Below, one piece after another: positions 5,690 through 53,720 of a stretch of DNA of 64,000 nucleotides. The stretch lies in contig CAITIS010000067.1 of assembly GCA_903892515.1 (NCBI GenBank), positions 65,347-129,346 on the forward strand. Reading direction: 5' to 3'. Both the position numbers and the translations under genes were made by a program. The notes under the pieces were generated by a model, which worked only from the letters and a program-made list of their open reading frames with translations, did not search any database and was not told where the DNA came from. Every line of letters starts with the position of its first letter. Positions within the stretch are counted from its first letter, which is position 1. The stretch is from an uncultured Planctomycetota bacterium. GTDB taxonomy: Bacteria; Planctomycetota; Phycisphaerae; SM23-33.

Positions 5690-5962
5690 TCAGTCTAAGT
5701 GAGCCACCGAATTGACGGTCCCTATGGGACTGATCGCAAAGCTGCTGTTGTCGGGGTCCACGACCCACCGGCCATCCAGCAGGAACTTATACTCATACAC
5801 CCCCGCCGAAACCGGCAGGACCGCCTCCAGAGTGCCGTCGGCCTTTTTCTGCATCGCCACAGGTTTCCAGTTCGTAAAGTCGCCGGCGATGAAACCTTCC
5901 CTCACCTGCGCTCGCAGGGCGAAGCTGACTTTCCTGGCACGAGAATCCTTCTTCTTGTACAT
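5690..5962 (-). CDS. standalone CBM48 / AMPK-beta-type glycogen-binding domain protein (paralog)
   Basis: 90 aa. KVSFALRA..GDFTNW..YEYKFLLDGRW. Tandem with the 5264..5647 gene. Confidence 0.65.
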   Translation of the reverse strand: MYKKKDSRARKVSFALRAQVREGFIAGDFTNWKPVAMQKKADGTLEAVLPVSAGVYEYKFLLDGRWVVDPDNSSFAISPIGTVNSVAHLD

Positions 5963-6341
5963 GACACTCTCTTAAAGGCTTGCACTTACCCGCGGCCTCA
6001 CTGGCCAACGTCCAGTGAACTAATTAGCTCACGGGAGTTCTCGCCGCCATCAGGGGTGATGCCGGTTTTCTTCTGCTACAAGCCCCTAGGCTTGGCCGCA
6101 ATAGTACACCATTCGCACGTACATATTCGCACGCGTTATAAGTGGCTGCATGCACGACTGTTATACATTCACTGCCAATGGGGGCATTGTGCAGTACCAG
6201 TGCACAGCCGGCGGGTATCTTGCCCAGGGGGCCTAGGGAATGTGTCTGCGCGATCTTAAGAATCGCTCTGGTTTACGAAAGATTACGTTGCCCAGCTGTC
6301 ATATGCTGGCGGCGAATCAGTCAACATGAGGAGCGGCCCCT

Positions 6342-7814
6342 ATGGCAGATCAAAGTCGATGGCGAGATGGATTCGGGCCCGATGAGGTCTCTCAACGCGT
6401 CCGGCCAGAGCACACCAACGAGTACCTGAACAACCCGCACAAGGGCCTGGTCACCTTCCAGCGCTTTGCCGGCGACCCACTCATGCAGTACCTGTTCGAC
6501 CAGGGCCGCGGCACGTGGGGCGTTCCGGATGGGGCCGAGGAAATGGAGGCCGAGGGCGCCCAGTACTTCATCAACGGCCAGCCGGCGGTGGGCTCGCAGC
6601 GTCCAATCGGCCCGGTGCCGGATGAAACCAACTACCTGCCCTCTCGCGTGGCGTACTGCCGCTGGGCGTGGCAACTGCTGGAGCCGCAGCGCGGCAAGAT
6701 TCGTTTCGACATCGTTGACAAGGCGCTGGAGACGGCCGCCGCGCGCGGCCAGACGCTGCAACTTCGCACCCAGCCGTTCATCAGCCCGAGCCTGTACCCC
6801 GTGCCGGAGTGGTACTGGCAGAACGGGGCAAAGCGCGACGCCGCCGCGTCCCGGCCCCACTACGCTATTCCCGACCACAACGACCCGCACTATCTCGAAT
6901 ACTGGGGCAACCACATCCGCGCCTTGGGCCAGCGATACGACGGCGACGAGCGGCTGGAAAGCTTCGACCTGTCCTACGGCGGCGGGTGCGGCGAGGGCGG
7001 CGGCAATTGCACGAGCGAAACGGCCGCCCGACTGGCCGACATCTATATGGACAGCTTTCGCCGCACGCCGCTGCTGACCCAACTTGGGACGGAAGGCGGC
7101 CGATATGCCGCACAGCAGCGGCAAGGCCGGATCGGGTGGCGGGCCGACTGCCTCGGCGACGTCCACACCGACAGCAACGGCACGGTGCCTGATGGCCTGA
7201 ACTGGAATCACATGTACGACTCGTATCCAGCCGAGGTGGACCGGTGCGGAGTGACGGATGCGTGGCGGCACGCGCCGGTGGCGTGGGAAACTGGCTGGTC
7301 GGTAGCGTACTGGCACGCCCAGGGCTGGGATGTCGATTGGATCCTGGACCAGGCCTTGAAGTACCACCCCTCGACGCTCAACGTCAAGAGCATGTACATT
7401 CCGCCTGACTTGATGGACAGGATGCGGGCGTTCTGTCAGCGGATGGGCTACTGGCTGCACTTGCACCAGATGGTCCTGCCGCTGGAGGGCCGGGCCGGGC
7501 AGGAGTGCCCGCTGGCCATGGTGATCGACAACAAGGGCGTCGCGCCGCTGTACCGGCCATATCGGCTGGCGCTGCGGTTCTCGCAGGGCAAGACGCACCG
7601 CGTGGTCTGCCTGCGCCAGGATGTGCGGCAACTGCTGCCCGACCTGACGCACTTCCGGGAGAGCTTCATATTCCCCTGGGGCCTGCAAGCGGGCCAGGCC
7701 AAGGTCTCGCTGGGCATCGTCGATTCCCGCGAAAGCCCCGTCGTCCGCCTGGCCATCAAGGCCATCGACGCCGAACTCTGGCACCCGCTGACCAGCGTGG
7801 ACGTGCTGGCCTAA
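6342..7814 (+). CDS. glycoside-hydrolase-like TIM-barrel protein (GH42 / DUF4874-DUF4832-like; paralog of 57454..58842)
   Basis: 490 aa. Shares NPHKG..TFQ.F.GD, YCRW.W.L.EP..GK..F and a C-terminal GW(D)(V/L)D block with the 57454 ORF. The W..EP..G..F pattern resembles GH TIM-barrel N-termini. No signal peptide. Confidence 0.6.
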   Translation: MADQSRWRDGFGPDEVSQRVRPEHTNEYLNNPHKGLVTFQRFAGDPLMQYLFDQGRGTWGVPDGAEEMEAEGAQYFINGQPAVGSQRPIGPVPDETNYLPSRVAYCRWAWQLLEPQRGKIRFDIVDKALETAAARGQTLQLRTQPFISPSLYPVPEWYWQNGAKRDAAASRPHYAIPDHNDPHYLEYWGNHIRALGQRYDGDERLESFDLSYGGGCGEGGGNCTSETAARLADIYMDSFRRTPLLTQLGTEGGRYAAQQRQGRIGWRADCLGDVHTDSNGTVPDGLNWNHMYDSYPAEVDRCGVTDAWRHAPVAWETGWSVAYWHAQGWDVDWILDQALKYHPSTLNVKSMYIPPDLMDRMRAFCQRMGYWLHLHQMVLPLEGRAGQECPLAMVIDNKGVAPLYRPYRLALRFSQGKTHRVVCLRQDVRQLLPDLTHFRESFIFPWGLQAGQAKVSLGIVDSRESPVVRLAIKAIDAELWHPLTSVDVLA

Positions 7815-8908
7815 CGGCGTGCCAATTTGGCGACGGGTGGCTCACATGCCGGCGGGTGCCATGGTCAGGCCGTCGTCTGGCCTGGCCATGCATGGAGGCA
7901 AACAACGCGGCAGGTAGGGCGGGCACTGCCCGCCGCCTTCCAGGCGACGCCAGATATCCGACCCGTCGGCCCATGGGGCGTTGCTGTTCTGACCGGCGAC
8001 GCCCGCCTTGCCCCAGCTTCGCATATGCAGCGTCTAACATGGTCACGCGAACAGCGTGACCATGCCACCCAAGTCGAGTCATGGCACCCATCTCTCAGCC
8101 GAGGGCGGCTGAGCCACGAAGACGGGGAGGAAAGCGGCGCGGGCAAGTTGGGTGCCATGGTCGCCTCGTCCAGCGGGCAAGTTGGGTGCCGTGGCAGCGG
8201 CGTCCAGCGGCCACGTTGCCTCGTCCTGCCCCCGCACCCCGCACGGCCGCGCAGGTCGCGACGGGGATCGATTCTAATAAATGAAGATCGCCGGCCGGGA
8301 GAATCGGACAGGCCGGGTGATCCTGTGCGCAGAATGGCATGCACCGGCCCTTCTATAGAAGCACCTCCGGCCGAGCGGGCGCGGGGGAGAAAGTTTAAAA
8401 AGTGAAGAGAGATCCGGCCTGGCCCAAGACGGTAATCAGACCGCTGCGCGGATGTGCGCATGGGGTATGCGCATGGTCAAATGCGGACAGTCAGGGGCGT
8501 GGCATTTCCGCAAGAACGTGCCGGCCAGAATGATGCGGCGCTTTGCCTGCGTGCAGAAACGTTGCAAACGGTTCCGTTTCGTTCCGAATCGTTCCGTTTG
8601 GTTCCGTTTCGTTCCGTTTGGTTCCGCTTGGTTCCGCTTGGTTCCCGATGGTTCCCAATGGTTTTGTTGGGTGCCGTGGCCGCGGCGTCCAGCGGCCACG
8701 CGTCCCCCGGCTAACCTGCTGCGTCCAAACATGGTCACGCGAACAGCGCGACCATGCCACCCACTACGTTGACAGTTCCACGGCCCCACTCCGCGCGGCG
8801 TCTGAACATGGCCAGGCCTAGACAGCGGCCTGACCATGCCACCCAATTCCACAGCCGAGGGCGGCTGTGCTACGCGTCTGCCCGCGCCGCCGCACTCGTG
8901 CTACGCGT
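7815..8908. repeat. ~1.1-kb non-coding region packed with short hairpin repeats, duplicated ~36-bp units and a 10-bp tandem array
   Basis: Hairpins CATGGTCA(N)TGACCATGCCACCC at ~7860, 8038, 8730 and 8807. ~36-bp GTTGGGTGCC(A/G)TGG..GTCCAGCGG units at ~8140, ~8176 and ~8662. CAGCCGAGGGCGGCTG at 8096 and 8846. GTGCTACGCGTCT twice at ~8862-8905. Confidence 0.8.
8566..8660. repeat. tandem 10-bp repeat (GTTCCGTTTC / GTTCCGTTTG / GTTCCGCTTG ...), ~10 units
   Basis: Directly visible periodic array of gttccgtttc, gttccgaatc, gttccgtttg, gttccgcttg and gttcccgatg units. Confidence 0.85.
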
Positions 8909-10429
8909 CTACTCGCGCAGCTTCCTCTGCACCGTTTCGACCACGGATGAGGCGGCGATGCGTTCCTGCTTGAGGCTGTCGCGGTCGCGGATCGTCACGC
9001 TGCCGTCGGTGGCGGTCTGGCCGTCGATCGTCACGCAGTACGGCGTGCCGGCTTCGTCCTGGCGGCGGTAGCGCCGGCCCACGGCACCCTTCTCGTCATA
9101 GAAGGCCGTCAGCCCGGCCTTCTTGCATTCGCGGTAGACCTTGTCCGCCGACTCGGGCATGCCGTCCTTCTTCACCAGCGGGAAGATCGCCACCTTGATA
9201 GGTGCCAGCCGCGGGTGAAAACGCAGCACAGTCCGCGTCTGCATCGCCCCGTTCTCGTCGGGGGCCTCGTCCTCGGTGTACGCCTCGCACAGGAAGGCCA
9301 GCGTGGCGCGGTCGCAGCCGCCGGAGGGCTCAATGACGTACGGGATGTACCGCTCCTTCGACTCGTCGTCGAAGTAGGCCATGTCCTTGCCGCTGAACTT
9401 CTGATGCTGCGTAAGGTCAAAGTCGGTCCGGTTGGCGATGCCTTCCAACTCGGCCGTGCCGAACGGGAAATCGTACTCCACGTCGGCGCAGGCCCGCGCG
9501 TAGTGGGCCAGTTCTTCCTTTTCATGGGAGCGCAGATGCAACTTACTGCTCTTCAAGCCCAGGTTGATGTACCACTGGTAGCGCGTGTCGCGCCAGTACT
9601 CGTACCACTTGTCGGCCTCGCTGGGATGGCAGAAAAACTCGATCTCCATTTGCTCGAACTCGCGGCTGCGGAAGGTGAAGTTGCGCGGGTTGATCTCGTT
9701 GCGGAAGCTCTTGCCGATCTGGGCGATGCCAAAGGGCGGCTTGATCCGCGCCGTGTCCAGCACGTTGCGATAGTTAGCGAAGATGCCCTGGGCCGTCTCG
9801 GGCCGGAGGTACGCCACGCTGGTGGAATCCTCCATGGCCCCGACGAAGGTCTTGAACATCATGTTGAACTTGCGGGCGTCGGTGAGGTGACCGCCACACA
9901 TCGGGCAGATACCGGCCGGGCCGCCCTCGACCGCGTGATCGACGCGAACGACCGACCAGGTCAGACGGTCGGCCTTTTCTTCCAGGCGGCGACGCGTCTT
10001 GCTGTTGGCCTTGGCGATGGCTTCGGCCTTGGCTTGTTCATCACCGTCGGCCTCGACGCCGGCCTGGTGCACGACCTCTTCGCCGGCCATGGCGATGACC
10101 ATGTACACCTTGTCGGCGCGGAAGCGGGCCTTGCAGCCCTTGCAGTCCACCAGCGGGTCGTTGAAGTTGACCACGTGGCCGGAGGCTTCCCAGACCTTGG
10201 GGTTCATGATGATCGAGCAGTCCAGGCCGACGACGTCGTCGCGCTGGCGGACGATGGTGTTCCACCACTCGTCCTTGACGTTCTTCTTGAGCTCGACGCC
10301 CAGGGGCCCGTAGTCCCAGAAGCCGTTGATGCCGCCGTAGATTTCGGAGGATTGAAAGATGAAGCCGCGGCGCTTGCACAGCCCCACGAGTTTTTCCATC
10401 AAGTCGCCGGGTTTGCTCTCTTTAGCCAT
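8909..10429 (-). CDS. glyQS: glycine--tRNA ligase (class II, single-chain dimeric type)
   Basis: 506 aa. N-terminus RRGFIFQSSEIYGGINGFWDYGPLG plus class II motifs and anticodon-binding C-terminus. Confidence 0.9.
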   Translation of the reverse strand: MAKESKPGDLMEKLVGLCKRRGFIFQSSEIYGGINGFWDYGPLGVELKKNVKDEWWNTIVRQRDDVVGLDCSIIMNPKVWEASGHVVNFNDPLVDCKGCKARFRADKVYMVIAMAGEEVVHQAGVEADGDEQAKAEAIAKANSKTRRRLEEKADRLTWSVVRVDHAVEGGPAGICPMCGGHLTDARKFNMMFKTFVGAMEDSTSVAYLRPETAQGIFANYRNVLDTARIKPPFGIAQIGKSFRNEINPRNFTFRSREFEQMEIEFFCHPSEADKWYEYWRDTRYQWYINLGLKSSKLHLRSHEKEELAHYARACADVEYDFPFGTAELEGIANRTDFDLTQHQKFSGKDMAYFDDESKERYIPYVIEPSGGCDRATLAFLCEAYTEDEAPDENGAMQTRTVLRFHPRLAPIKVAIFPLVKKDGMPESADKVYRECKKAGLTAFYDEKGAVGRRYRRQDEAGTPYCVTIDGQTATDGSVTIRDRDSLKQERIAASSVVETVQRKLRE

Positions 10430-10889
10430 GTCTGAGACTCTCCTAATGACTGTCCGGCTGGGCCGGAAAGATTCAGATCATAGGCCCCTGGGGGCGAGAA
10501 AACAACGCTTTGCATGGTATGGCGTCGCATGTCGATGTAACTATGGCACACAACCATCGCATATCGAGCAGGCCCTTCAGAGGTTTGGCCAGAGGCGTGT
10601 CGTTCGGGCGGCGCCACCCTGCGGGAGTCCCAACATGGTCATCCCAGACGGCGGGATTGACCATGCCACCCCAAAATCGCCCATCTACGAGCGGTTATAC
10701 GCTACAGACCGCACGGCCCGGAAAGGTCAGCCAGATTCGCACCCCATATCCGCCATTTTCTCCAGATTCAAATGTGCGTAACGCAATGGTGACAAGACAC
10801 TTGCGTATTCACTTTTGGCCTATTCAATCTGAACAAATCGGATACTATGAAGTCAGAGGAAGCACCGATTGCCCAAGGAGGTAATCCCA

Positions 10890-10961
10890 ATGTCTCGCAC
10901 GCTACGTCACAAGATCAAAGTGTTGCTGTTCGTCGCACTCAGCTTCGCCGCGATGTGCTAG
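10890..10961 (+). CDS. candidate small ORF (23 aa, MSRTLRHKIKVLLFVALSFAAMC) with canonical Shine-Dalgarno
   Basis: AAGGAGGT 8 nt upstream of ATG. Hydrophobic signal/TM-like peptide. Followed at once by a long hairpin. No homolog recognised. Confidence 0.25.
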   Translation: MSRTLRHKIKVLLFVALSFAAMC

Positions 10962-10963
10962 TA

Positions 10964-11009
10964 GTCCTTCGACTCTGATTTTGCAGTCACAAAATCACAG
11001 TCGAAGGAC
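10964..11009 (+). other. long near-perfect hairpin (11-bp outer stem GTCCTTCGACT / AGTCGAAGGAC) following the small ORF
   Basis: Inverted repeat read directly. No clear T-tract, so terminator assignment is uncertain. Confidence 0.4.
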
Positions 11010-11228
11010 TACAGAGCAGGCGAGCAGCAGAACAGGTGAGCAGGCGAGAAGACTGACCGCTCGCCTGCGGTCGCCTGTTCACCTGCTCACGACTCACAGA
11101 ATCGACGGTGACGAATATCACTGCGTCACCTTCGGTGAACGCACCGGGCCAGCGAGCGATTGAGTCGATGAACACACGACCAGTGGCCGGTGAAACTCCG
11201 GCCCACGCCCGCAGCCGGCCTGCGGGTT

Positions 11229-13962
<2,734 letters not shown>

Positions 13963-14198
13963 CGATTCCCTTTCCTGGTCGGAGGTCAATTGCCCCGCCA
14001 CTGTATGGCCCGCGACGGGTTCTCGTCAAGCCGATGTGGAGTGGCATCCACATTCCCTGCCTCCCGAACAAATCTCTCGACAGCCGCGTGGTAACAAAGT
14101 ATTGATGGGCGCCAAAGTCGCAAATCCGCCGGGGACTGGGCGTTGACACGAATGATTGCCTTTGCTAAGATTTGGTGCTTTTAACGAAGAGGTTCGCT

Positions 14199-14582
14199 AT
14201 GGCTGGAAAGCTTGAAGGAAAGAAGATTCTGCTGGTTGACGATGATCAGGACATTCTGGCGTCGCTGCAGATGGCGTTGGCCGACACCGGTGCGACGATC
14301 CAAACCGCCAGCGATGGCAATACCGCCGTCGAAATGGCCCAGACCTTCCAGCCTGACCTGATGGTGCTGGACCTGATGATGCCCAAGCGAAGCGGCTTTT
14401 TGGTCTTGGACACCATCAAGAAGGGCAAGAAGAAGGGCGATGCTCCCAGGGTGATTATGATCACCGGCAACACGGGCATGCGGCACCGGGCGTACGCCGA
14501 GAGCCTGGGCGTCAGCAAGTACTTCAATAAGCCCTTCCGCATGGACCGGATGGTCGAGTCAGTGATGGGATTGCTGTCTTAG
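14199..14582 (+). CDS. single-domain response regulator (CheY-like receiver)
   Basis: KKILLVDDD ... DLMVLDLMMP ... K receiver motifs. GAAGAGG SD-like purine-rich sequence ends 8 nt upstream of the ATG. Confidence 0.8.
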   Translation: MAGKLEGKKILLVDDDQDILASLQMALADTGATIQTASDGNTAVEMAQTFQPDLMVLDLMMPKRSGFLVLDTIKKGKKKGDAPRVIMITGNTGMRHRAYAESLGVSKYFNKPFRMDRMVESVMGLLS

Positions 14583-14685
14583 GACGGCTTGACGAGACGA
14601 TACACGAAGCGATTGACAGAGAAAAACAGTACGGCCGACGGGATACGCTCGACGGCCAAGCAATGAAGGATAGTGAAAAGCAGGT

Positions 14686-14955
14686 ATGACCACCGACACG
14701 ATTGACAAGAAAAGCGTAGTGACCACCCACCAGCGGCATGAAGGCGACACGGGTTCAGCCGAGGTTCAGATCGCCCTGCTGACCGAGCGCATCAGCCACC
14801 TCACTGAGCACCTGCGGAGCCACAAGAAGGATTTTTCTTCCCGCCGCGGATTGCTCGTAATGGTCGGCAAGCGCAGCGGGATGCTGAAGTACCTGGCCAA
14901 GACTGACGTGGGCCGTTACCAGCAGATCATCGGCAAGCTGGGCCTGCGCAAGTAG
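14686..14955 (+). CDS. rpsO: 30S ribosomal protein S15
   Basis: 89 aa. Typical S15 sequence ([37 protein letters not shown]) upstream of pnp. Confidence 0.9.
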
Positions 14956-15005
14956 CACGTCGAAGGCACTCCATAAGCCTCGGACGACCTGAGCGAAAAG
15001 GTCCT

Positions 15006-15032
15006 GAGCGGCTCTCTCCGCGCGAGCCGCTC
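15006..15032 (+). promoter_or_regulatory. 9-bp perfect stem hairpin (GAGCGGCTC..GAGCCGCTC) in rpsO-pnp intergenic leader
   Basis: Inverted repeat seen in sequence. Position matches the conserved rpsO terminator / pnp-leader processing hairpin. Confidence 0.4.
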
Positions 15033-15237
15033 CGGGCCCAAGGCTTCCAAGCTGTGGCAGCGCGGGTCTTTGATGTTTTCTGTACCCCGCAGGGACGCAC
15101 TGGCCGCCCTAGGGGCCGCCGGTGGTCGTCTGGACGGTTGGTCCTGCGCGGCGAGTATGAGTTGTGTCGGCATAGTGTCGGCTGTGAAATAGGCAAGTTG
15201 GTAGACAGGCAAACAAAGTAGGTAAGGCAAAGAGAAA

Positions 15238-17385
15238 ATGGCAACGATTGCAAGTGTAGAGAAGAAAATTGGATCCGGAACACTCACTATCGAAACTGGC
15301 CGTATGGCCAAGCAGGCTCATGGCGCCGTGACCGTGCGCTATGGCGACACCGTGGTGCTGGCGACGGTTCTGTCGGCCCCCTCCACCCGCGACCTGGATT
15401 TTTTCCCGCTGTACGTGGACTACCGCGAGATGCAGTACGCCGCGGGCAAGTTCCCCGGCGGGTTCTTCAAGCGTGAAGGCCGGCCCTCCTCCAAGGAGAT
15501 TCTGACCGCCCGGTTGATCGACCGCCCGATTCGCCCGCTGTTCCCCGATGATTTCAACGACGAAGTTCAGATTCAGTGCATGGTCATCGCCGCCGACAAG
15601 GAAAATGACGGCGACGTGCTGGCCGTGATCGGCTCCAGCGCCGCCCTGGCCTTGAGCCACGCGCCCTTCATGGGCCCGATGAGCTGCGTCCGCGTCGCCC
15701 GTGCCGACGGCAAGTTTGTCGCGTTCCCCTCATATACGGAGCGTGCCGCCAGCGACTTCGACCTGATCATTGCCGGCCACAGCAAGGCCGTGAACATGAT
15801 CGAGATGGGCGGCAAAGAAGTTCCCGAAGCCGACATGGTTGCCGCCTGCACCTTCGGCTTCGAGCAGATGCAGATCGTCATCGGCATGATCAACGAGCTG
15901 GTGGCCAAGGTCGGCAAGCCGACGACGTACGTGCCCACCCCGCTCTCCGAAGAGCTGATCAAGAAGGTCATCGGCATCGCCGGCGACCGCATGCGGAAGC
16001 TCAAGACCATCAAAGCCAAGCAGGAGCGCAACGCCGCCATGTCCGCCTTGGCCGACGAAGTTGTGGCCCAGCTTTGCCCGCCCGACGAGACGGCCCCGCA
16101 GTTCCTGCCCGCCGATGTCAAGGCCGCCTGCTACAAGGCCGAGGGCAAGATCCAGCGCGAGCTGATTCTCTCGGGCATCCGTCCTGATGGCCGAGGGCCC
16201 AAGGAAGTTCGCCCCATCAACATCGACTGCCCGGTCCTGCCCCGCGTCCACGGTTCGGCGTTGTTTTCCCGCGGCGAGACGCAGGCGTTGGCGATTGTGA
16301 CCCTGGGCACGCCGCGCGATCAGCAGAAGATCGACGGACTCCAGGAAGAGTACTTCAAGCGATTCCTGCTGCATTACAACTTCCCGCCCTTCAGCGTCGG
16401 CGAGATTCGTCCTGTTCGCGGCCCGTCGCGACGCGATATTGGCCACGGCGCCTTGGCCGAGAAGAGCCTCGAAGCCGTCATCCCCAGCCAGGAAGAGTTC
16501 CCGTACACGATCCGCGTTGTCAGCGAGATCATGGAGTCCAACGGCTCCAGCTCGATGGCGACGATTTGCGGCGGCTGCCTGGCCATGATGGATGCGGGCG
16601 TTCCGATCAAGACCCCGGTGGCGGGCATCAGCATCGGCCTGGTTCGCGAAGGCGACCGGAAGCTGCTGCTGACCGACATCATCGGCGAGGAAGACTTCCA
16701 TGGTGACATGGACTTCAAGGTCGCCGGCACCAAGAACGGCATCACCGGCATCCAGCTGGACTTCAAGCCCCCCACGGGCATCGATCTGCCGACAATTGCC
16801 GAGACGTTCGCCCAGGCCCGCGAGGCCCGCATGCACGTGCTGGCTGAGATGGCCAAGGCCCTGGCCGAGCCGCGTAAGGAAATCAGCCGCAATGCCCCGC
16901 ATCTGCTGTCGATCCATATCGACCCCGAGAAGATCGGCAAGGTCATTGGACCGGGCGGCAAGATGATCAACGGCCTGAGCCAGAAGTACGCCGTCACCAT
17001 CGATATAGAAGACGATGGCTCGATCTTCATCGGCGGTATGGATGCCGAAGGCGTCGAAGGCGCCCGCGGCGAAATCGAGGCCATTACCGAGGAGATCAAG
17101 GTCGGCAAGACATACACCGGAAAGGTGGTAGGAATTCGCGAATTCGGCGCGTTCCTGGAGATCGCCCCGGGCAAGGACGGACTTTGCCACATATCAGAAT
17201 TAGATGAAAAATACGTGAAAAATGTCGCCGATGCGGTTAACCTTGGTGACACCTTCAAGGTGAAGGTTATTGCCGTCGACGATCAAGGCCGAGTGAAGCT
17301 GTCCCGCAAGGCCGTGATGAAGGACGAGCGGCCAGCCGGCGAAGAGCCCACGGCCGAAGGCACGACCGAGGGCGAATCGAAGTAG
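15238..17385 (+). CDS. pnp: polyribonucleotide nucleotidyltransferase (PNPase)
   Basis: 715 aa. Two RNase PH domains plus C-terminal KH and S1 (GKVV.I..FGAF). Strong SD AAGGCAAAGAGAAAATG. Confidence 0.95.
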   Translation: MATIASVEKKIGSGTLTIETGRMAKQAHGAVTVRYGDTVVLATVLSAPSTRDLDFFPLYVDYREMQYAAGKFPGGFFKREGRPSSKEILTARLIDRPIRPLFPDDFNDEVQIQCMVIAADKENDGDVLAVIGSSAALALSHAPFMGPMSCVRVARADGKFVAFPSYTERAASDFDLIIAGHSKAVNMIEMGGKEVPEADMVAACTFGFEQMQIVIGMINELVAKVGKPTTYVPTPLSEELIKKVIGIAGDRMRKLKTIKAKQERNAAMSALADEVVAQLCPPDETAPQFLPADVKAACYKAEGKIQRELILSGIRPDGRGPKEVRPINIDCPVLPRVHGSALFSRGETQALAIVTLGTPRDQQKIDGLQEEYFKRFLLHYNFPPFSVGEIRPVRGPSRRDIGHGALAEKSLEAVIPSQEEFPYTIRVVSEIMESNGSSSMATICGGCLAMMDAGVPIKTPVAGISIGLVREGDRKLLLTDIIGEEDFHGDMDFKVAGTKNGITGIQLDFKPPTGIDLPTIAETFAQAREARMHVLAEMAKALAEPRKEISRNAPHLLSIHIDPEKIGKVIGPGGKMINGLSQKYAVTIDIEDDGSIFIGGMDAEGVEGARGEIEAITEEIKVGKTYTGKVVGIREFGAFLEIAPGKDGLCHISELDEKYVKNVADAVNLGDTFKVKVIAVDDQGRVKLSRKAVMKDERPAGEEPTAEGTTEGESK

Positions 17386-38064: not shown

Positions 38065-39069
38065 CTACGCGTCGGATCGGTCTCTGATCACGCGCCGCAC
38101 GGCGTACGTGTGCCGCTGGCCGCTCTCGAAGTAGACCCGCATGAGCATCTCGCCCATCAGGCCAGTGGCCAGGCACAGCAGGCCGGCGACCAGGAAGAGC
38201 ACGCCCATCGCCAGCAGCGGGCCGTGCGTGTGGACGATGGAGAAATCCTGCCAGCTAACCAGCTTGCGGATCAGCAAGTACAGCAGAATCGCCCCGCCGC
38301 TGGCCAGTCCGAGCATGCCGCCCTTGCCGAAGAAGTGCATGGGGCGCGTGAGATAGGCCGTGGTGAAACGCAGCGTCAGCAGATCGAGTGCGACGCGGAA
38401 GGTCCGGCCGATGCCGTAGTTGCTCTTGCCGGCCTTGCGGCGGACGTTCTTGATGGGCACCTCGCAGATGCGCGCCCCCCACCGGGCGATGATGGCGGGC
38501 ACGTACCGGTGCATGTCGCCATACAGGCGGATGCCTTCGAGCACTTCGCGCCGATACGCCTTGAACGTGGTGCCGAAATCATGCAGCGGCACGCCCGACA
38601 CGGCCGCCAGCAGTTTGTTGGCGATCCGGCTGGGCAGACGCCGCAGCAGAAAGCCGTCGCCGCGACGAATCCGCCAGCCGCTGGCCACGTCGTAGCCCTC
38701 GTCGATCTTCTTGATAAAGAGCGGAATCTCGTACGGATCGTGCTGTAAATCGCCGTCCATGGCGATGATGACCTGCCCGCGGCAGTGGTCAAAGCCCGCC
38801 TGCAGCGCGGTGGTCTGGCCAAAGTTCCGACGCAAGTCCACGAAGATCACGCGGCCATCGTCTCGGCTGATTTGCTCCAGCATCGCCGGCGTGTCATCTT
38901 TGCTGCCGTCATTGACGAAGACCATTTCGTACGGCTGGCCGACGTGCTTCATGACGCGTGCGATCCGCTCGTATAACGTGCGGACGATGCCAGCTTCGTT
39001 GTAGAACGGCACGACGATGCTGTACTTGATGTCGCTGTTTGAACTATCCATGCTGTTAAAGCTGTCCAT
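38065..39069 (-). CDS. GT2 glycosyltransferase (polyprenyl-phosphate sugar transferase-like, C-terminal TM helices)
   Basis: YSIVVPFYNE ... VFVNDGSKD ... DGDLQHDP motifs. Two C-terminal TM segments. Confidence 0.8.
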   Translation of the reverse strand: MDSFNSMDSSNSDIKYSIVVPFYNEAGIVRTLYERIARVMKHVGQPYEMVFVNDGSKDDTPAMLEQISRDDGRVIFVDLRRNFGQTTALQAGFDHCRGQVIIAMDGDLQHDPYEIPLFIKKIDEGYDVASGWRIRRGDGFLLRRLPSRIANKLLAAVSGVPLHDFGTTFKAYRREVLEGIRLYGDMHRYVPAIIARWGARICEVPIKNVRRKAGKSNYGIGRTFRVALDLLTLRFTTAYLTRPMHFFGKGGMLGLASGGAILLYLLIRKLVSWQDFSIVHTHGPLLAMGVLFLVAGLLCLATGLMGEMLMRVYFESGQRHTYAVRRVIRDRSDA

Positions 39070-39904
39070 AATGAATCAACTGCACGCCACGCAGGCGGAT
39101 TCTTTCCTTTACCCGTTCATCGCACAACGCGTCGAGTTCGGCCCGGCGGCTTTCACGCAGCCGGGTCTGCCCGTGGGGCACGTCCTCGGCGTAGCCGGGA
39201 TGAACCATGATCTCCGTCGCCCCGGCCGTCAAACCATCGATGGCCGACAGCAAGTACGCCACGTCGATGTGGCCCGTGTGCGCCACGCCCAGCGTGCCCG
39301 TCGTGCCGACTAAGTCTCCGCCACGGCGAGCGTTGCCCCGGCCCAACCAGTTCAGCACACAGCTGAGGCGGCGCCGCTTGGCCGAGGTCGGCTCGAACGC
39401 GCCGGCGGCCAGGTGTTCAGCGTGCCGGCGCACGTGCGGGATATCATAGCGGCGGCAAAGCCCCAGCACGAGGCGGAAAACCGCCGGCCAGCCGTGCACG
39501 TGCCGGTGACTGTCCATGTGCGTAGGTTTCAGGCCCAGTGAAAGCGCCCGTTCGATCTGGGCGGCGAACTCAGCCTCGATGGCCGGCAAGAAGCGGCGTC
39601 CGTGTAACAGGCAGCCCTTGATGATGGCATCGCCACTGGAGTTCATGACGCCGTTTTGGTCCGCGAGGACTTCTCGTCCTTGCTTTGAGAGTGCCGGTCC
39701 CTGACATGCGTTCAAGTGCACTCCAACGCCCAGGCTGGGCGTCTGGATGGCGATCGCGGCGGCGTACTCACAGGCAGGCATGTTGGCCGCCAACGTAGTG
39801 GAAGTAATGACGCCGTGCCGATGGCCATGCACGATGCCGTCGGTGATGCCGCGCGACCAGCCGAAATCGTCGGCATTGACGATCAGGCGGACCGAGTCGG
39901 ACAT
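39056..39904 (-). CDS. YdjC/ChbG-family carbohydrate deacetylase (HpnK-like)
   Basis: LIVNADDFG..GI..GI...H..G.ITSTTL motif at the N-terminus. Start set at MSDSVRLIV. Confidence 0.7.
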   Translation of the reverse strand: MSDSVRLIVNADDFGWSRGITDGIVHGHRHGVITSTTLAANMPACEYAAAIAIQTPSLGVGVHLNACQGPALSKQGREVLADQNGVMNSSGDAIIKGCLLHGRRFLPAIEAEFAAQIERALSLGLKPTHMDSHRHVHGWPAVFRLVLGLCRRYDIPHVRRHAEHLAAGAFEPTSAKRRRLSCVLNWLGRGNARRGGDLVGTTGTLGVAHTGHIDVAYLLSAIDGLTAGATEIMVHPGYAEDVPHGQTRLRESRRAELDALCDERVKERIRLRGVQLIHYGQL

Positions 39905-40011
39905 GGCACAGCCGTGGCTCGACTGAACTAGCCGAAGCGCCTTGGCTGTGGGCATCTTCGTAGCACAGCCGCCCTCGGCTGTGGGTTTGCTCGTATCCTG
40001 CTCTCCCGCCA

Positions 40012-40962
40012 TCATTGCGGCCTCTCCCGCAACTTCACGCCCATCGCCCAGGCCCCAAGCACGCCGACGCAGGCCGGGAGCAGCAGCACGATCAAGGCGT
40101 TAGTCAGGTACGCCGCCAGCACCATCGACGGCGTGAACCCGAACGCCCCGAAGACCCCCACCGCCACCGTCTCGCGCACGCCGAAGCCGCCGGGCGTAGC
40201 CGGGATGAGGTTATTGAGCATGACCACCGGCGTCAGGGCTGAGGCCATCAGCAGCCCGATGGGCCCGAAGGCGCGCAGGCAGAGATAGACGGTCAGCACA
40301 CTGAGAACTTCGGCCAGGATCGAAGTGGCCAGGAACACGCCAAATGGCCACCATGGCAGCGTGATTTCCGCCAGTTGCTTGGCCTTGCCTGGCAGCAGGC
40401 GGGTAAACAAGCCCCACAGTCGAGCAGGCCGATAGTGCAGCAGCAGCGGAAAAGCCAGGGCCAGACACAGCAGCACAGGACAGGCGACCAGAGCGGCCGG
40501 TGGGATCTGCGAGCCGCCGAGTTTCACGTCGGCCGTCACGAGATACACCAGCCCCAGCAGGCACAGCAGCAGCACGCCAGCCAGGTCGAAGAGCCGTTCG
40601 ACCACGACCCACCCCGCCAGTTTGAGCCGCACGCCCTTGGGCACGAACATCGGCCTGACGACTTCCCCGCCGCGAAACGGCGTGGCCAGCCCCACGCCCA
40701 AGCCCGCCAGCATGGAAACCCACGCCTGCCGCCAGAGGATGGGCTGCCCCTCCAGCCCGGTCATCCAGCGCCACCGCGCCACCCGCACCGTCCAGTACGC
40801 CAGAGCCAATACGACGGCTCCCAGGAGATGCCCTGCGCTGGCGTGGCGAACCTCGGCGGCCAAGCTGGACCACTGCTGATGGCTCAGCAAATACGCCAAC
40901 AGCCCCGCGGCCAGTGCCAGCGAGAGCCCCTGCAAAATCCACGCTTTCAGACGAGACGGCAT
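40012..40962 (-). CDS. flippase-like / UPF0104 (lysyl-PG-synthase TM-region) family membrane protein
   Basis: ~316 aa with ~8 hydrophobic helices. Start at MPSRLKAW. Stop overlaps the YdjC start (ATGA). Same operon as the GT2 gene. Confidence 0.55.
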   Translation of the reverse strand: MPSRLKAWILQGLSLALAAGLLAYLLSHQQWSSLAAEVRHASAGHLLGAVVLALAYWTVRVARWRWMTGLEGQPILWRQAWVSMLAGLGVGLATPFRGGEVVRPMFVPKGVRLKLAGWVVVERLFDLAGVLLLCLLGLVYLVTADVKLGGSQIPPAALVACPVLLCLALAFPLLLHYRPARLWGLFTRLLPGKAKQLAEITLPWWPFGVFLATSILAEVLSVLTVYLCLRAFGPIGLLMASALTPVVMLNNLIPATPGGFGVRETVAVGVFGAFGFTPSMVLAAYLTNALIVLLLPACVGVLGAWAMGVKLRERPQ

Positions 40963-41034: not shown

Positions 41035-41292
41035 TACTACAACGCTACGAATGGAGCTTTGATAATTCGCCTGGCTTGGAGGCCCGGAGGGCCGAAACGA
41101 TTGTAGCCGTGGGCGTAAGCCCACGGAGACCGCCCCAGTGGCAAAGAGCCCCGGCGGGGCGACAGAGTCGTTGGACAAGCCAACGGTGTCGCCCCTTCGG
41201 GGCTCAGGCACAAGCCCATGCATACCGGGGGCTTACGCCCCCGGCTACAGTAGTACCGACCCTTCGGGTCTGAATTTCGTAGCGTTGTAGTA
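41035..41292. repeat. 258-bp structured element bounded by 17-bp perfect inverted repeats (TACTACAACGCTACGAA), MITE-like or structured RNA
   Basis: IR-L 41035..41051, IR-R 41276..41292. Nested internal inverted repeats (GGCGTAAGCCC/GGGCTTACGCC, GGGGCGAC/GTCGCCCC, CCCTTCGGG). Confidence 0.55.
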
Positions 41293-41539: not shown

Positions 41540-42607
41540 CTAGCTCCACGGGGTCCGCTTCTTGATGACCTTCTTATCGCGGAAGTACTTCACGCGCTTG
41601 TAGTGGTCCTGCACGTTCGTCAGCAGCGGGTTGGTCTCATTCATGTCCTGGCCGGTGATCATGGTCAGCAACTCGGAGAACTCCTTCTCCGCCCGCAGCC
41701 AATCCTGGTCCTTTTCCAGCAGGTACGCATTGCGGTACTGTTCGCTGACCCGCTGCGTGACCTTTTCCAGCACCTGCTGGTACATGCGGTCATTTTCCGG
41801 ATCGGCAAAGAAGTTCCTGCCGCTGTACGCGTAGGCCTCCTTAAAGGCCTCCAGCACGCGGTAAAGGTGCGGCGAATCCAGCCCGTACTGCTGGTAGAGC
41901 CCCAGGGCGTAGTGCAGGCGATCTTCCATCAGCACCGGATTGACCGCCCGAACAGGCCGGGTCTCCAACGCTTTGGCGATGTCAGAACGCGAAAGTTCCG
42001 GCGGAATGGGCATTTCGTTCTCGTGCCGGCTGCTCAAGCCGGAGAGAAACAAGAACAGCAGCACCATCGCGGCCATGTATACGCCCAGGATGATCAGCAG
42101 CTTCTTTCGCCGCGAACTCTTGGGCACCGTCAACTTGTCCTGCAGGCCGACGCCGACGGCCTTGATGGCATTGCGACCTTCCGAGAGGGCAGGCAGCGTT
42201 TTGCCGGCATCAGGCTGGACCTTCTTGACGGTCTGGCCAAAGGCGTTGCGGCGTTTGTCGGGCTTCAACATGGCGGCCACGGCCTGCTCAACATCATCGC
42301 CGACGGCCACGAAGAGCAACTCGGTCTCGCGACCCACGCCGATGAGGTCGCCCGTATCCAAAAGCACGCTCTTGCCGCTTTTATACTTCCGGCCGTTGAT
42401 CCACGTGCCCAGGGCTGAAATGTTTTCGATGACCAGGCCGTCATCCACCCGGCGAAATCGAGCATGCTCGCGAGAAATGTACTGCTCGCTCAGAGACACA
42501 TTGGCCTCGGCAGAGCGGCCCAACAGCATGAGCGGGTCGGTCAGGATGACCCGCTTGCCGGCCTGGGGGCCCGCGAGAAACACAAGTTCGGCGTAAGTTT
42601 GACTCAT
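41540..42607 (-). CDS. FHA-domain protein with central TM helix (Tad/Kil-locus associated)
   Basis: N-terminal FHA (LLGRS..NVSLSEQYISREHARF ... NISALGTWINGRK). TM segment LLIILGVYMAAMVLLFLFLSGL. Confidence 0.75.
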   Translation of the reverse strand: MSQTYAELVFLAGPQAGKRVILTDPLMLLGRSAEANVSLSEQYISREHARFRRVDDGLVIENISALGTWINGRKYKSGKSVLLDTGDLIGVGRETELLFVAVGDDVEQAVAAMLKPDKRRNAFGQTVKKVQPDAGKTLPALSEGRNAIKAVGVGLQDKLTVPKSSRRKKLLIILGVYMAAMVLLFLFLSGLSSRHENEMPIPPELSRSDIAKALETRPVRAVNPVLMEDRLHYALGLYQQYGLDSPHLYRVLEAFKEAYAYSGRNFFADPENDRMYQQVLEKVTQRVSEQYRNAYLLEKDQDWLRAEKEFSELLTMITGQDMNETNPLLTNVQDHYKRVKYFRDKKVIKKRTPWS

Positions 42608-42710
42608 GGCTTGCTGGTTAGTCAGTTAATCGGTGAAGCAGCTAATCTCACGCGTCATCAGCATCAGCGTACGCCCGCGACCGGTCGCTGATTAACTGGT
42701 CTACTCTCCC

Positions 42711-43649
42711 TCAGAACAACTCCCGCTTCAAGGCCCGGATGATAATCGGAGCGAACACGGTCAGCACGACTGAAAGCAGCACCAGCAGGCTGGGCACGAG
42801 AATCCGCACCGAAGCGGCCGCTGCCAGTTTCTCCGCCCGCACAGACCGCTGCAACCGCATCAGGTTGGCCTGTTCTTTGAGCACAATCGACAGCGGCGTA
42901 CCGAGCCCTTCGGCCTGGATGATCGCCGCCACGATCGAGCGCAGCGATTCCAGCGGAATTCTATCGGACAGGTTGTGCAGTGCCATCGCCCGCGTGGTGC
43001 CCAGTTCCACCTCGGCCAGGACCGTGTTCAATTCCACGTTGAACGGGTGGCTGGGGTCTTCTCGGATCACCGTGCGAATCGCCTCGGTGAAGGTTGCGCC
43101 GGCCCCCATTGCCAATGCGATCAGGTCCAGCGTGTACGGCACGCGCCGGGCGATGTCATGCACCCGCCGCTTGGCCATGTTAAAGAGGTGGTACAGGTAA
43201 AAGCCGAAGCCGCCGACCAAACCAATGACGAGGGCCGCCGGGCTGAACTGCTGCTGCAGGGCCATGTTACCGACTGTCAGCAGGCCCGCTGAACCCACGC
43301 TGACGAGCAAGGCCATGGCAATGGCCTCATCCGTGGTGTAGAAGTTCGGGCTGCCGGCCGCAATGAGCGTCCGCCGAAGTCTTTCTCGCAAATTCGGGGC
43401 CGGAAGCTGCCGGGACAATGCCAGCAGCAGCCACAGCATGGGCGCGAAGAATGAGTTTTCAAAGAGCGTGCGCCGGTCGGCATGGCCAGTGGCAAGCGCC
43501 ATCTGCCGCTCGGGCGTGACCTCGACCCGGCCGTGCACGCCGAAGACCGCCAGCACGAACGCCACCACGAAGGCGAAGATCGCCCCCGCCAGGCCCCACT
43601 GCAGCAGGCTCATCTCGGCCAACGGGATGTTCAGTTCGATGTTATACAT
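42711..43649 (-). CDS. Tad pilus inner-membrane platform protein TadC-like (T2SS-F family)
   Basis: Polytopic. T2SSF-domain-like. Adjacent to and overlapping the TadB-like gene. Confidence 0.65.
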   Translation of the reverse strand: MYNIELNIPLAEMSLLQWGLAGAIFAFVVAFVLAVFGVHGRVEVTPERQMALATGHADRRTLFENSFFAPMLWLLLALSRQLPAPNLRERLRRTLIAAGSPNFYTTDEAIAMALLVSVGSAGLLTVGNMALQQQFSPAALVIGLVGGFGFYLYHLFNMAKRRVHDIARRVPYTLDLIALAMGAGATFTEAIRTVIREDPSHPFNVELNTVLAEVELGTTRAMALHNLSDRIPLESLRSIVAAIIQAEGLGTPLSIVLKEQANLMRLQRSVRAEKLAAAASVRILVPSLLVLLSVVLTVFAPIIIRALKRELF

Positions 43650-44507
43650 CGATGGACACAATCTGGCGGATCCACAGGAACCCGGCAACGTTGAGCAGAA
43701 TAATGAAAAACAGGATGACCTTTCCGGTGTCCTCGGTCACCAGCAGGCTCACGCCGTACGGGTCGATCATGTACAAAATGGCCAGAATCACCGCCGGCAT
43801 GGCGCCCATCCACCTGGCGGCCGTGCGACCCGGGGCGGTCAGCGTCTCGATCTGCTTCTCCAACCGATGAATCTCGCGGATGCTCTCGGCGATCCGTTCC
43901 AGCGTTTCGCCCAGGTCACCGCCGCGCTCGCGGTGCGTTAATAGAGCGGAAAACAGCAGCCGGTAGTTGCTCGACCCAATCCGGGAGGCCGCGTTCTGCA
44001 TGGCCTGTTCGAGCGAAATTCCGTGCTCGTACTCCCGCAGCAGGTGGGTGAATTCCTCGCTGATGGGCTTGGAGGCGTTGTGGGCCAACAGTTCCATCGC
44101 CTGCACCAGGTTGAGCCCGGCCCGCACGCCGCTGGACAACGTCTGGATGCCGTCAACAAGCTGATCCTCCAGCCGTGAAAGCCGCCGGCGTTTGAGCATC
44201 TTGATCGTCAGCACCGGCACGGCCAGCCCCAGCAAGGCCCCGCCCACCGCCACGAGCGCGTGCTGAATCAGCGTGTAGCCGATGGTAGCGAATAACGCCA
44301 TGCACAGGCCCGTCAGGACCGTCACCGTTCGCGGACTGATCTCCAGCAGCAGCGAGCCGCGTAGGACGGATTCGTACCCGCTCTCCTGACGCAGCACGAA
44401 ACGCCGAAACGGCGCCCAGCCGCCCAGAACAACCAGGAATACGGCCGTGAAGAGCACCGCTCCCATCGCGATCTGCCACAGCCGTTCGTCAGCCACCACC
44501 GCCATCA
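43642..44507 (-). CDS. Tad pilus inner-membrane platform protein TadB-like (T2SS-F family)
   Basis: Start set at [10 protein letters not shown] (first 148 codons of the long ORF overlap cpaF out of frame). Polytopic T2SSF-like. Confidence 0.65.
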
Positions 44508-46412
44508 CTGAAAGACCTCCAGCGCCAGCAGATCCTTTGCCATGAGTTCCTGCGTGAATTCCGGAATGTAGCCGGTGTGCTGGAGCCGCAGTTCGCCCTT
44601 CCACGCGCTGTCGAAGATATTGCCGCTGCCGAAGGACTCGTGTGCCGGCCGGAGGACGAAGATGTCCTCCGTGAGAATCTGCGAGGTTTCCTGATCCAGC
44701 CCCACCACCTCCGAAATATGCGTAATCCGCCGCCGGCCATCGGGGAATCTGGCTACCTGCACCACCAGGTGGATGGCCGCCACGATCTGCTCGCGAATAG
44801 CCCGCACCGGCATCTCGACGGCGGTCAGAACCATGGTTTCCAGCCGCATCATCGTGTCGGTCGGCGTGTTGGCGTGGATCGTGGTCAGCGAACCATCGTG
44901 GCCGGTGTTCATGGCCTGGAGCATGTCCAGAGCCTCGGGGCCGCGGCATTCGCCGACAATCAGCCGGTCCGGCCGCATACGCAGCGCGTTGCGGACCAGG
45001 TCGCGGATCGTGTAGGCGCCCCGGCCCTCGATGTTGGGCGGCCTGGTCTCCAGCCGGACGACGTGCTCCTGCGGCAGTTGCAGTTCGGCCGAATCTTCAA
45101 TGGTGACGATGCGTTCTTCGGCCCCGATGAAGGCAGCCAGCACGTTTAGCGTCGTGGTCTTGCCGCTGCCCGTGCCGCCGGAGATCAGGATGTTCTTCCG
45201 GCCTTGCACGCAGGCCTTGAGAAAGTTGGCCGTCGCCTCCGTCAGCGTGCTCCGCTCGACGAGGTCGTCGATGGTGAAGGGAATGCGGGCGAATTTTCGG
45301 ATCGTCAGGGTTGGCCCCGACAGGCTCAGCGGGTTGATGATAGCGTTGACGCGCGAGCCGTCGCTCAATCGGGCGTCCACCAGCGGCGTGGAGCGGTCGA
45401 TGCGCCTGCCCACGGGCGTGATGATTCGCTCGATAATGCTCAGGACAACTTCGTCGGAGAAGAAACTGCGGTCGGTGTTGGACACCTGGCCGTCCTTCTC
45501 AATATAAATGTGGTCCTTGCCCACGACCATGATCTCGTTGACGTGGGGCATCTCCAACAGATCCTGCAACGGGCCGTAGCCAAAGACGACGTCCTCGATT
45601 TCCTTGCTGACCATCCGCGTGGCCACGTAGCGGCGCAGCTCGTCAGTCACCTTGTCATCGCACCGCCGCAGCACGTTGTCGAAGTCCGCCTCGATCATGG
45701 CGGCGTCTTCCCGAATGGACTGCGGCGTCAGCCGAACCGGGAAGTAGCTGATGATGTCGCCCACAAGCCGGCTGAGCGTCTTTTCCAGTTCGCCCTGCAG
45801 GATGTCGGAATCCTCGAAACCGTAGCTGTACATCATCCGGCCTGTAGAACGCATGGTCAGTTCGGTAATGACGGAGCGCCAGAGGAATTCACGCAGCAGG
45901 TGAGCGAGCATCTCCTCGTCGAGTTCAGGCAACCGCTGCTGGATGATCTCGGCCAGGTGCCGCTTGATCAAGGCCGCGTAGTCCGCGTCGGCCTTGGCCA
46001 CTTGCGAGGCCACGCGCAAGTTCAGCCGTTCGAGCAATTGGGCGTGCAGCGACTGTTCGAATTCCACCAGCCGGCGGCGTGGCGTGGTCGTTTCGGCCGA
46101 GGCGCGTCCGCGCCGGGCCGATGGCTCCATCATGAACAGCGAGAACTCGCCCAGGCGAATCTCGTCACCGTAAGAGATCTTCGCACGCGTGTGCGGCGGA
46201 ACGTCGCGGTTGGCAACCGTCGTGCCGTTTAAGCCCAGGCTCTCGACGAAAAAGCTGCCGCTGTCCTTGAACAGCCGGGCGTGCTGACGCGAGACAAACG
46301 GGCTCTTGAGCGCAACCGTATTGCGCTCATCCCGGCCGATAGTGACTTCGCCATCGCCGACCTGGACGACCTTGCGCTCATCGGACAGGTGATTGTAGAC
46401 CCAGATTTCCAA
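44505..46412 (-). CDS. cpaF: Tad secretion ATPase CpaF/TadA with N-terminal FHA domain
   Basis: FHA motifs ([21 protein letters not shown]...GLNGTTVAN) then VirB11/CpaF core (Walker [10 protein letters not shown], Asp box, Walker B, His box). Confidence 0.85.
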
Positions 46413-53712: not shown

Positions 53713-53720
53713 TCAATTCC

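Follow-up and report, generated by a model that had tools for sequence, protein, structure and literature searches.

What kind of DNA fills a gap of 1,094 bp between two genes when no gene can be recognized in it and about half of its length is made of repeats, all far above chance? The gap (positions 7815-8908) lies in a 64,000-nucleotide stretch of contig CAITIS010000067.1 from an uncultured Phycisphaerae-like member of the Planctomycetota; this stretch, called the window below, has a GC content of 62.6%. The gap separates a DUF4832/GH42-like gene (GH, glycoside hydrolase) from glyQS, which encodes a glycyl-tRNA synthetase (GlyRS). It is probably a cluster of repetitive extragenic palindromic (REP) elements of the GTAG super-family, similar to a bacterial interspersed mosaic element (BIME), with an embedded 10-bp tandem array generated by slippage, between convergent genes. 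REP-type intergenic repeat DNA is a known kind of sequence, found here in a lineage where it had not been catalogued before.

Three families of tagged palindromes

The repeats of the gap belong to three families, R1, R2 and R3, which share one unit, a short hairpin whose stem is flanked by an unpaired GT(A/G)N tag; the elements are 21-38 nt long and have stems of 8-12 bp. R1 reads GTAG-GGCGGGCA-c-TGCCCGCC. R2 reads GTAG or GTGG followed by CNCAGCCG (GTAG-CACAGCCG-ccct-CGGCTGTG on the minus strand) and has a variant, GTGG-CTCAGCCG. Two paired motifs are parts of it: CAGCCGAGGGCGGCTG (8096-8111 and 8852-8867) is the body of R2, and GTGCTACGCGTCT (8867-8879 and 8898-8910) is its tag with the flank. 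R3 reads GGGTG[G/C]-CATGG..., with an extended tag, GGGTGS, that often has AA next to it. Its hairpin, with a stem beginning with CATGG or CGTGG, is followed by [G/C]CACCC(AA); on the other strand this is the tag GGGTG[G/C], which immediately precedes the stem on its 5' side. R3 thus unites the "CATGGTCA...TGACCATGCCACCC hairpins" with the "GTTGGGTGCC...GTCCAGCGG units", which differ only in strand.

R3 keeps its tag, its loop (AAACAGCG or TGGACGCC) and the CATGG base of its stem, while the stems otherwise vary. The stems covary: both sides have changed in seven of nine pairs, and 91.5% of the cells are paired, a value that none of 500 shuffles reached. A covariance model of R3 has 10 strong matches in the 64 kb, six of which are inside the 1.1-kb region.

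It should be noted that a first-pass annotation, made from the letters alone, had already described the region as gene-free and as made of hairpins, duplicated 36-bp units and 10-bp tandem repeats. Sequence reading, Tandem Repeats Finder (TRF) and a separate repeat finder recovered all of its motifs at their sites, and four motif counts exceeded those in dinucleotide shuffles (13 versus 2.9, 2 versus 0, 7 versus 0.4 and 5 versus 0.2). The repeats themselves are therefore confirmed, whereas their listing as separate motifs is not, since they are mostly tagged palindromes of the REP type; in addition, the element GTAGGGCGGGCACTGCCCGCC at 7914-7934, a copy of R1, had been missed. The features of the region and its flanking genes are the following (bits are scores of the R3 covariance model).

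6342-7814, plus strand: left flanking gene, DUF4832/GH42-like (Pfam PF16116 and PF02449; GC content at third codon positions 0.86)
7854-7890, minus strand: R3 (39 bits, E 9e-8; DNA fold -11.3 kcal/mol); read on the plus strand, tag GGGTGC (7854-7859) and stem CATGGTCAGGCC / loop / GGCCTGGCCATG; inverted partner of 8807-8844 (inverted repeat, 25 nt, 88%)
7914-7934, plus strand: R1, perfect 8-bp stem
8036-8070, plus strand: R3, AA-CATGGTCACGC gaaca GCGTGACCATG-CCACCC (47.8 bits; 11-bp perfect stem); tag GGGTGG on the minus strand; 97% identical to 8728-8763
8080-8089, plus strand: orphan R3 tail CATGGCACCC, without hairpin, pairing with 8146-8159; 8080-8093/8146-8159 is a larger imperfect palindrome (14 nt, 93%)
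8094-8117, minus strand: R2 variant, GTGG + CTCAGCCG ccct CGGCTGAG (read on the minus strand), perfect 8-bp stem; 81% identical over 32 nt to 8843-8874, also matching 39955-39981
8147-8181, minus strand: degenerate R3 unit (80% duplicate; TRF period 34; weak fold, -4.3 kcal/mol), tag and 3' arm intact, 5' arm decayed; in tandem with 8181-8215
8181-8215, minus strand: R3, TGGACGCC-loop subfamily (47.9 bits), tag GGGTGC at 8184-8189
8220-8540, no strand: unique central segment, GC content slightly lower (58-65%)
8541-8663, plus strand: 10-bp tandem array, consensus GGTTCCGTTT (TRF; repeat finder)
8666-8700, minus strand: R3 (49.3 bits, the best match; 9-bp perfect stem), 97% identical to 8181-8215
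8728-8762, plus strand: R3, duplicate of 8036-8070 (46.6 bits)
8807-8844, plus strand: R3, CATGGCCAGGCC tagacagc GGCCTGACCATG-CCACCC (37.6 bits)
8850-8873, minus strand: R2, GTAG + CACAGCCG ccct CGGCTGTG (read on the minus strand), perfect stem
8867-8910, minus strand: two copies of AGACGCGTAGCAC, the R2 tag with flank (repeat finder; sequence reading); the second copy gives glyQS its TAG stop codon
8909-10429, minus strand: right flanking gene, glyQS-type glycyl-tRNA synthetase (Pfam PF00587 and PF03129), with ligA next after it

In correction of the first-pass annotation, the flanking genes are convergent, and thus the whole gap lies downstream of both. The first REP hairpin follows the stop codon of the left gene at a distance of 40 nt. 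REP clusters of the BIME type typically accumulate between convergent genes. Along the region the orientations run -,+,+,(+),-,-,-,[array],-,+,+,-, the spacings are irregular (34, 485, 692 and 82 nt), and two junctions recur, namely an R3 tail joined to R2 and a 5' flank GCGTCYRAAC.

Dispersal in the window and in related genomes

If these palindromes are REP elements, are they tagged and dispersed beyond the gap? In the whole window, 18 of the 38 perfect hairpins with a stem of at least 8 bp have GTAG, GTGG, GTGC or GTGT next to the stem, where 1.1 would be expected (binomial P ~4e-18, for a tag set that was picked after viewing the data). A blind tabulation of the flanking tetranucleotides ranked GTAG alone first, with seven hairpins, followed by GTGC, GTGT and GTGG. 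Identical copies of R1 are present at 54405-54427 (plus strand) and 13454-13475 (minus strand), R2 recurs at 39959-39984 (26 nt identical to the 8850-8873 copy), and R3 recurs at 10631, 50766, 50853 and 55671. All copies of the three families are outside genes, as judged by gene boundaries from Pfam and public gene calls, and each family occupies two to five separate intergenic sites in the 64 kb.

The window contains another tagged family, R4 (GTGT/GTGA + C[AG]YGGSCG tct CGSCCRYG), with four copies that form two opposite-facing pairs (47293-47392) and a further, inverted pair at 60219-60289; homologues of R4 with GTAG or GTGT tags were found in the related loci L004, L006, L021 and L080. Tagged hairpins of yet another kind stand at 41107/41225.

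Related Planctomycetota loci, 289 kb in total, show the same leading tags beside their hairpins, namely GTAG, GTGC, GTGG and GTGT. The top tag in the Firmicutes loci that were fetched by the same query is AAAA, because of their T-tract terminators. Elements of the R3 or R4 type with other stems are present in L004, L006, L007 (there as an inverted doublet, L007:2020-2120), L021 and L080. With three to five new families, GTAG-type REPs would thereby be catalogued in an uncultured Phycisphaerae-like lineage as well.

The dispersed copies also affect gene prediction. Longest-ORF (open reading frame) starts overrun REP hairpins at 39964, 50766-50896, 54405 and 13455, in the genes at 39056-40015, 48707-51055, 53721-54881 and 11229-13688. 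The positions of Pfam domains and the public call of ligA (680 aa, not 819 aa) place the true starts downstream, and these cases indicate that REPs inflate naive ORF predictions in this genome. A GTRS tag next to a palindrome offers annotators a reusable signature for masking such regions in metagenome-assembled genomes (MAGs) of Planctomycetota.

Relation to known REP elements

GTAG REPs are palindromes of 20-40 nt with an unpaired GTAG tag, which in some families is GTRG or GTGG, and they are known from R. baltica (Planctomycetes) and from O. terrae (Verrucomicrobia), where GTGG predominates. One genome often holds several families, clusters are frequent, and sub-families differ by complementary stem changes; the elements are mostly located between convergent or unidirectional ORFs, and a TAG stop codon often lies within the tag (PMC3733652). 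The elements described here share with this super-family, which includes the REP/BIME sequences of E. coli, the REPs of Pseudomonas and the SMAG elements of S. maltophilia (PMC3733652), the tag beside a 7-12-bp GC-rich stem, the presence of several families, the compensatory stems, the extragenic convergent location, the mixed clusters and the use of the tag as a TAG stop. They differ from it in their new stem and loop sequences, in the extended tag, CATGG base and conserved loop of R3, in having GTGC in half of the R3 copies, in lacking the alternation of E. coli BIMEs, in the 10-bp array and in their host, a Phycisphaerae-like MAG.

All three families have the stem-loop that defines a REP (20-40 nt, stem of 5-13 bp), which in R3 is backed by covariation. 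The defining tag, GTAG, GTGG or GTRG at 0-2 nt from the stem, is present in R1 and R2 (GTAG), in the R2 variant (GTGG) and in four R3 copies, whereas the R3 copies with GTGC deviate from the definition. A published prediction rule, GTAG or GTGG at 0-2 nt 5' of a 7-20-bp stem (PMC6006769), is likewise satisfied by R1, R2 and four R3 copies. A literature search with the R3 core sequence returned primer coincidences only.

A second known relative is the REPIN-RAYT system, with REP-associated tyrosine transposases (RAYTs) (PMC3116915, PMC2817692). Inverted tagged pairs that can fold into larger hairpins are also seen here (8080-8093/8146-8159, L007:2020-2120 and 41080-41271), and the elements are dispersed and apparently vertically retained in related genomes. 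In contrast to REPIN-RAYT systems, there is no RAYT gene in the 64 kb, and the elements are mostly singletons or irregular clusters, not uniform doublets.

The pair at 41080-41271 is curated elsewhere as RNA. Two matches to the Rfam small RNA (sRNA) family Acido-Lenti-1 (RF01687; PMC2864571), at 41080-41126 (minus strand) and 41225-41271 (plus strand), score 41-43 bits against a gathering score of 37; they are inverted, ~100 bp apart, and have an LPG-synthase-like gene on one side and an FHA-domain gene on the other. Each consists of a GC-rich hairpin followed by CUA(C), here CUAC; on the opposite strand this corresponds to a GTAG tag. Being inverted and GTAG-tagged, the pair looks like a REPIN-style doublet, and it demonstrates an overlap between a curated sRNA family and the tagged palindromes of this genome. 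Rfam lists Acido-Lenti-1 for Acidobacteria and Lentisphaerae only. The elements of the gap differ from it, as they have no RF01687 match at E<=1 and the second small hairpin of Acido-Lenti-1 is absent in R1-R3. The finding suggests that at least one "sRNA" family of Rfam behaves as a tagged REP doublet in this genome.

A possible origin of the cluster

How could such a cluster have arisen? Its anatomy, the enrichment of tags, the dispersal, the extragenic and convergent location and the occurrence of the families in related genomes are direct observations, from which we infer dependence on a RAYT, mobility and a role in termination. According to the biology of REPs and RAYTs (PMC2817692, PMC3116915, PMC3479197), the tagged hairpins would form on single-stranded DNA, and a single-copy HUH tyrosine nuclease of the RAYT/TnpA-REP type, encoded elsewhere, would recognize their tag and stem. 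This nuclease would spread the hairpins as non-autonomous elements, which would accumulate where insertion is harmless, new copies beside old ones. RAYTs are typically single-copy. Local duplication would then build blocks, for example 8036/8728, 8181/8666 and the 34-bp tandem at 8147-8215; the first two pairs are 97% identical, flanks included. The first hairpins, which lie ~40 nt past each stop codon and fold at -10 to -14 kcal/mol with DNA parameters, would probably serve as T-tract-less terminators or 3'-end protectors of the GH-like and glyQS mRNAs.

Several observations weigh against the assignment to REPs. No RAYT/Y1-transposase gene is found among the ~45 ORFs of the 64-kb window. The conserved tag of R3 (GGGTGS, often plus AA) is longer than that of classical REPs and contains GTGG in four copies and GTGC in the others, about half, and R3 loops, with 7-8 nt, are longer than the 2-5 nt that the published rule for short hairpins allows. 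The orientations do not alternate regularly as in textbook E. coli BIMEs, and twelve R3-like sites in 64 kb are suggestive only. A terminator or stabiliser role is conjectural; a simple terminator scan finds nothing at the hairpins, which have no T-tracts. Finally, the 320-bp centre and the 10-bp array are not accounted for by the REP model itself.

The 10-bp array

The array comprises ~9.5 good units at 8570-8663 (7.6+2.5 copies in TRF), preceded by about three degenerate units from 8541 onwards; neither the rest of the window nor the GlyRS-related loci have another such array. With its head-to-tail units of ~10 bp over ~100 bp and its decaying outer units it resembles bacterial minisatellites with variable numbers of tandem repeats as well as iteron and centromere arrays. 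The parC site of plasmid R1, for example, has direct repeats of ~10-11 bp. In contrast to these known arrays, it is chromosomal and located between 3' ends, no partition or replication genes are near, and no copy-number variation was observed. It originated most simply by replication slippage; a protein-binding role is less probable.

A metagenome scan for two consecutive units returned, among the matches listed, mostly two-unit matches that are possibly due to chance. At least nine high-GC contigs have arrays of 4-10 units that are the same (GTTCCGTTTC) or related (GGAACTTTCC, GAAACTTTCC), with a conserved ~60-nt leader upstream and unrelated housekeeping genes alongside (L083, L086, L096, L101, L121, L137, L162, L171 and L173; e.g., L171:1440-1830 and L121:1-430). 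R3-type hairpins are present in two of these nine contigs and in none of ~90 other matched loci; that of L171 reads CATGGCCAGGC-AAACAGC-GCCAGGCCATG-GCACCC. The recurrence of the arrays, twice together with R3-type REPs, argues for a module that recurs across related genomes and against one-off slippage, and the array thus resembles a recurring component of the mosaic repeats between genes in this group of bacteria.

In the metagenome contigs the mosaic element consists of the leader, ending in ..CAAAACAGGAAATGCATTGTGCTGCAAGGACTTACGGATTTCGGGGCGGTTGCG, followed by arrays of GGAACTTTCC / GAAACTTTCC / GTTTCGTTCC with a 10-bp period, and it is often accompanied by the tandem repeats GGCACCRG, GAGTGCGG and CAATTGTC and by R3-type hairpins; it has no Rfam match. 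On a further contig, a five-unit GTTCCGTTTC array (L147:366-405) lies directly beside an IS110-family transposase gene (485-1654; PF01548/PF02371). IS110/IS1111 elements are known to target palindromic repeats.

Alternative explanations

Could R3 and the array be more than REPs and slippage? It is rather unlikely that R3 and the 10-bp GTTCCGTTTC arrays belong together as a composite system of the intergenic space, one that has not been described and is specific to this lineage of Phycisphaerae-like Planctomycetota. It could then be a mobile mosaic of a new, non-autonomous type or a phased platform bound by a dedicated protein, and not ordinary REP debris; the protein would possibly be a non-RAYT enzyme such as a class 3 TnpA-Y1, a class that is enriched in Planctomycetes. 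The proposal is based on R3, with its GGGTGS tag, CATGG base, AAACAGCG loop and freely covarying stems, which is kept across genera, and on the arrays of other contigs, which follow a conserved ~60-nt leader at many loci. If R3 and the arrays were indeed a functional unit, this would be a new mosaic repeat system, which is speculative.

It is unlikely that the hairpins act primarily at the RNA level and are not mobile DNA, that is, that they are T-tract-less or factor-dependent terminators, stabilisers of mRNA 3' ends or a repeat-derived small RNA. The position of the first hairpin ~40 nt after each of the convergent stop codons would fit such a function, as would the covariation of stems between conserved flanks, the retention of the motif with different stems in related genomes, the lack of Firmicutes-style T-tract terminators in these GC-rich loci and the fact that another tagged hairpin pair of the window, Acido-Lenti-1, is an Rfam sRNA. 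However, the copies have no consistent orientation towards the genes next to them and include R3 copies that are antisense between co-directional genes (10631, 50853 and 55671), which argues for a DNA-level element and against an orientation-dependent RNA signal. Near-identical duplication that extends into the flanks points to DNA copying, and six to eight copies per gap are far beyond the needs of termination.

The searches for RNA features point in the same direction. At E<=1, no Rfam match over 7000-11000 overlaps the repeats, and assignment to an Rfam RNA family was therefore rejected; at the gathering threshold the whole window contains a tRNA-Ser and the two Acido-Lenti-1 matches, all outside the region. 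A tRNA/tmRNA scan found none near the region. A scan for sigma-70 promoters and T-tract terminators gave 0 sites, in the case of terminators because the hairpins have no T-tracts. The centre (8220-8540) shows no significant fold on either strand compared with shuffles (z -0.85 and -0.89), no Rfam match and no coding signal, and neither the fetched loci nor plasmids or phages contain DNA resembling it. The earlier suggestion of a repeat-derived noncoding RNA thus finds no support, and an RNA-level function fits the REP model as a secondary role, not as an alternative to it.

It is quite improbable that the array is the functional core of the region, be it as a phased protein-binding platform, as bent DNA or as a contingency switch with variable copy number. 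The period of exactly 10 bp across ~95-120 bp would suit such a role, and so would the arrays behind a conserved leader in the metagenome contigs, two of which also have R3-type REPs. Bending and a contingency locus had both been proposed in the first-pass annotation, and neither gains from the present results. A wedge model, whose result is indicative only, predicts 3-16 degrees for the array core, at low percentiles of the window, compared with a window mean of 21 and 131 for an A-tract control. A contingency locus requires its repeat within a gene or promoter, whereas the array lies between two 3' ends and has no promoter-like site, so that changes in its length would have nothing obvious to switch. 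No candidate for a binding protein of the ParR, Rep or regulator type is adjacent, the leader of the metagenome arrays has no similarity in the window (nhmmer; Smith-Waterman versus shuffles), and the neighbours of those arrays are unrelated housekeeping genes. Because the metagenome matches were selected by the unit itself, the identity of their units is partly ascertainment. As for the copy-number comparison between strains that had been envisaged, the sole other recorded contig is 100% identical and has the same array length.

A single large miniature inverted-repeat transposable element (MITE) at 7854-8844, with terminal inverted repeats (TIRs) of ~37 bp formed by the two R3 copies with GCCAGGCC stems, is highly improbable. 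The segments 7854-7878 and 8820-8844 are 88% complementary over 25 nt, folding of the region as a single strand pairs these arms as its outermost stem, and some RAYT genes do have long TIRs, not REPs, at their sides (PMC3733652). Nevertheless, any two palindromic REP copies in opposite orientation automatically resemble TIRs. The interior has no second copy in the window, in related loci, or among plasmids and phages, whose collections gave no match; it is itself a mosaic of the small repeats, and there is no evident duplication of a target site.

A decayed or fast-evolving protein-coding gene, a clustered regularly interspaced short palindromic repeat (CRISPR) array, a cluster of integron attC sites and an assembly artefact are effectively refuted. 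For a gene speaks a public gene call of 198 aa that lies inside the repeats (7865-8461, minus strand; L081:7969-8565). Its product matched only itself among 5.8 billion proteins, and the call should be regarded as spurious, as it has no homologue and no coding signal; what the public gene calls list as an ORF is repeat DNA. The codon-phase GC spread is 0.05-0.20 across 7810-8890, compared with 0.4-0.58 in both flanking genes, and the ORFs of the region yield Arg/Pro-rich translations. When nine of them were compared with Pfam at E<=1, the long ORFs matched nothing and two short ones had weak matches, to Sex_peptide and DUF5539, below the curated cut-offs. With no codon-position bias, homologue or meaningful domain match, a protein-coding gene was rejected, and the gap is gene-free, as had been annotated.

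That it is not a CRISPR array had also been annotated correctly: the repeats are unevenly spaced, the 10-bp array has no spacers, uniform spacers are lacking altogether, and no cas domains are present in the window. Neither cas nor integrase genes nor other transposase genes are found among its ~45 ORFs. Integron attC sites are likewise imperfect palindromes that form single-stranded hairpins. Their core consensus is RYYYAAC / GTTRRRY, which the R3 tail, ACCCAAC / GTTGGGT, fits. However, the R3 hairpins have 26-32 nt compared with 55-140 nt, the core-like sequence is present on one side only, which is the wrong one, and there are no cassette ORFs, no integrase and no extrahelical bases; attC sites, including clusters lacking an integron integrase (CALIN), were rejected on these features alone. 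Repeats of this kind can confuse short-read assemblers, but a separately recorded contig of 12.9 kb, from three samples, is 100% identical over 5709-16429 and thus across the whole region, which makes an assembly artefact unlikely.

Neighbouring genes and other parts of the window

The GlyRS of the window is at most ~80% identical to proteins of Planctomycetota/Phycisphaerae MAGs, which points to a source without a close species representative, and none of these best relatives (~80% identical) has a GH-like gene downstream of glyQS. One further member of the GlyRS cluster is a 1.5-kb contig that has the GlyRS gene without flanks. The window contains two paralogous DUF4832/GH42-like genes, the left neighbour of the gap at 6342-7814 (plus strand) and a second one at 57454-58842 (minus strand). 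A large cluster of the Tad/Flp-pilus type extends over 41540-56999 and encodes RcpC/CpaB, T2SSE ATPases with FHA domains, T2SSF, TadE/TadG-like proteins and a prepilin peptidase, with an inserted Ser/Thr kinase gene. Several short intergenic gaps of this cluster also hold REP-type hairpins.

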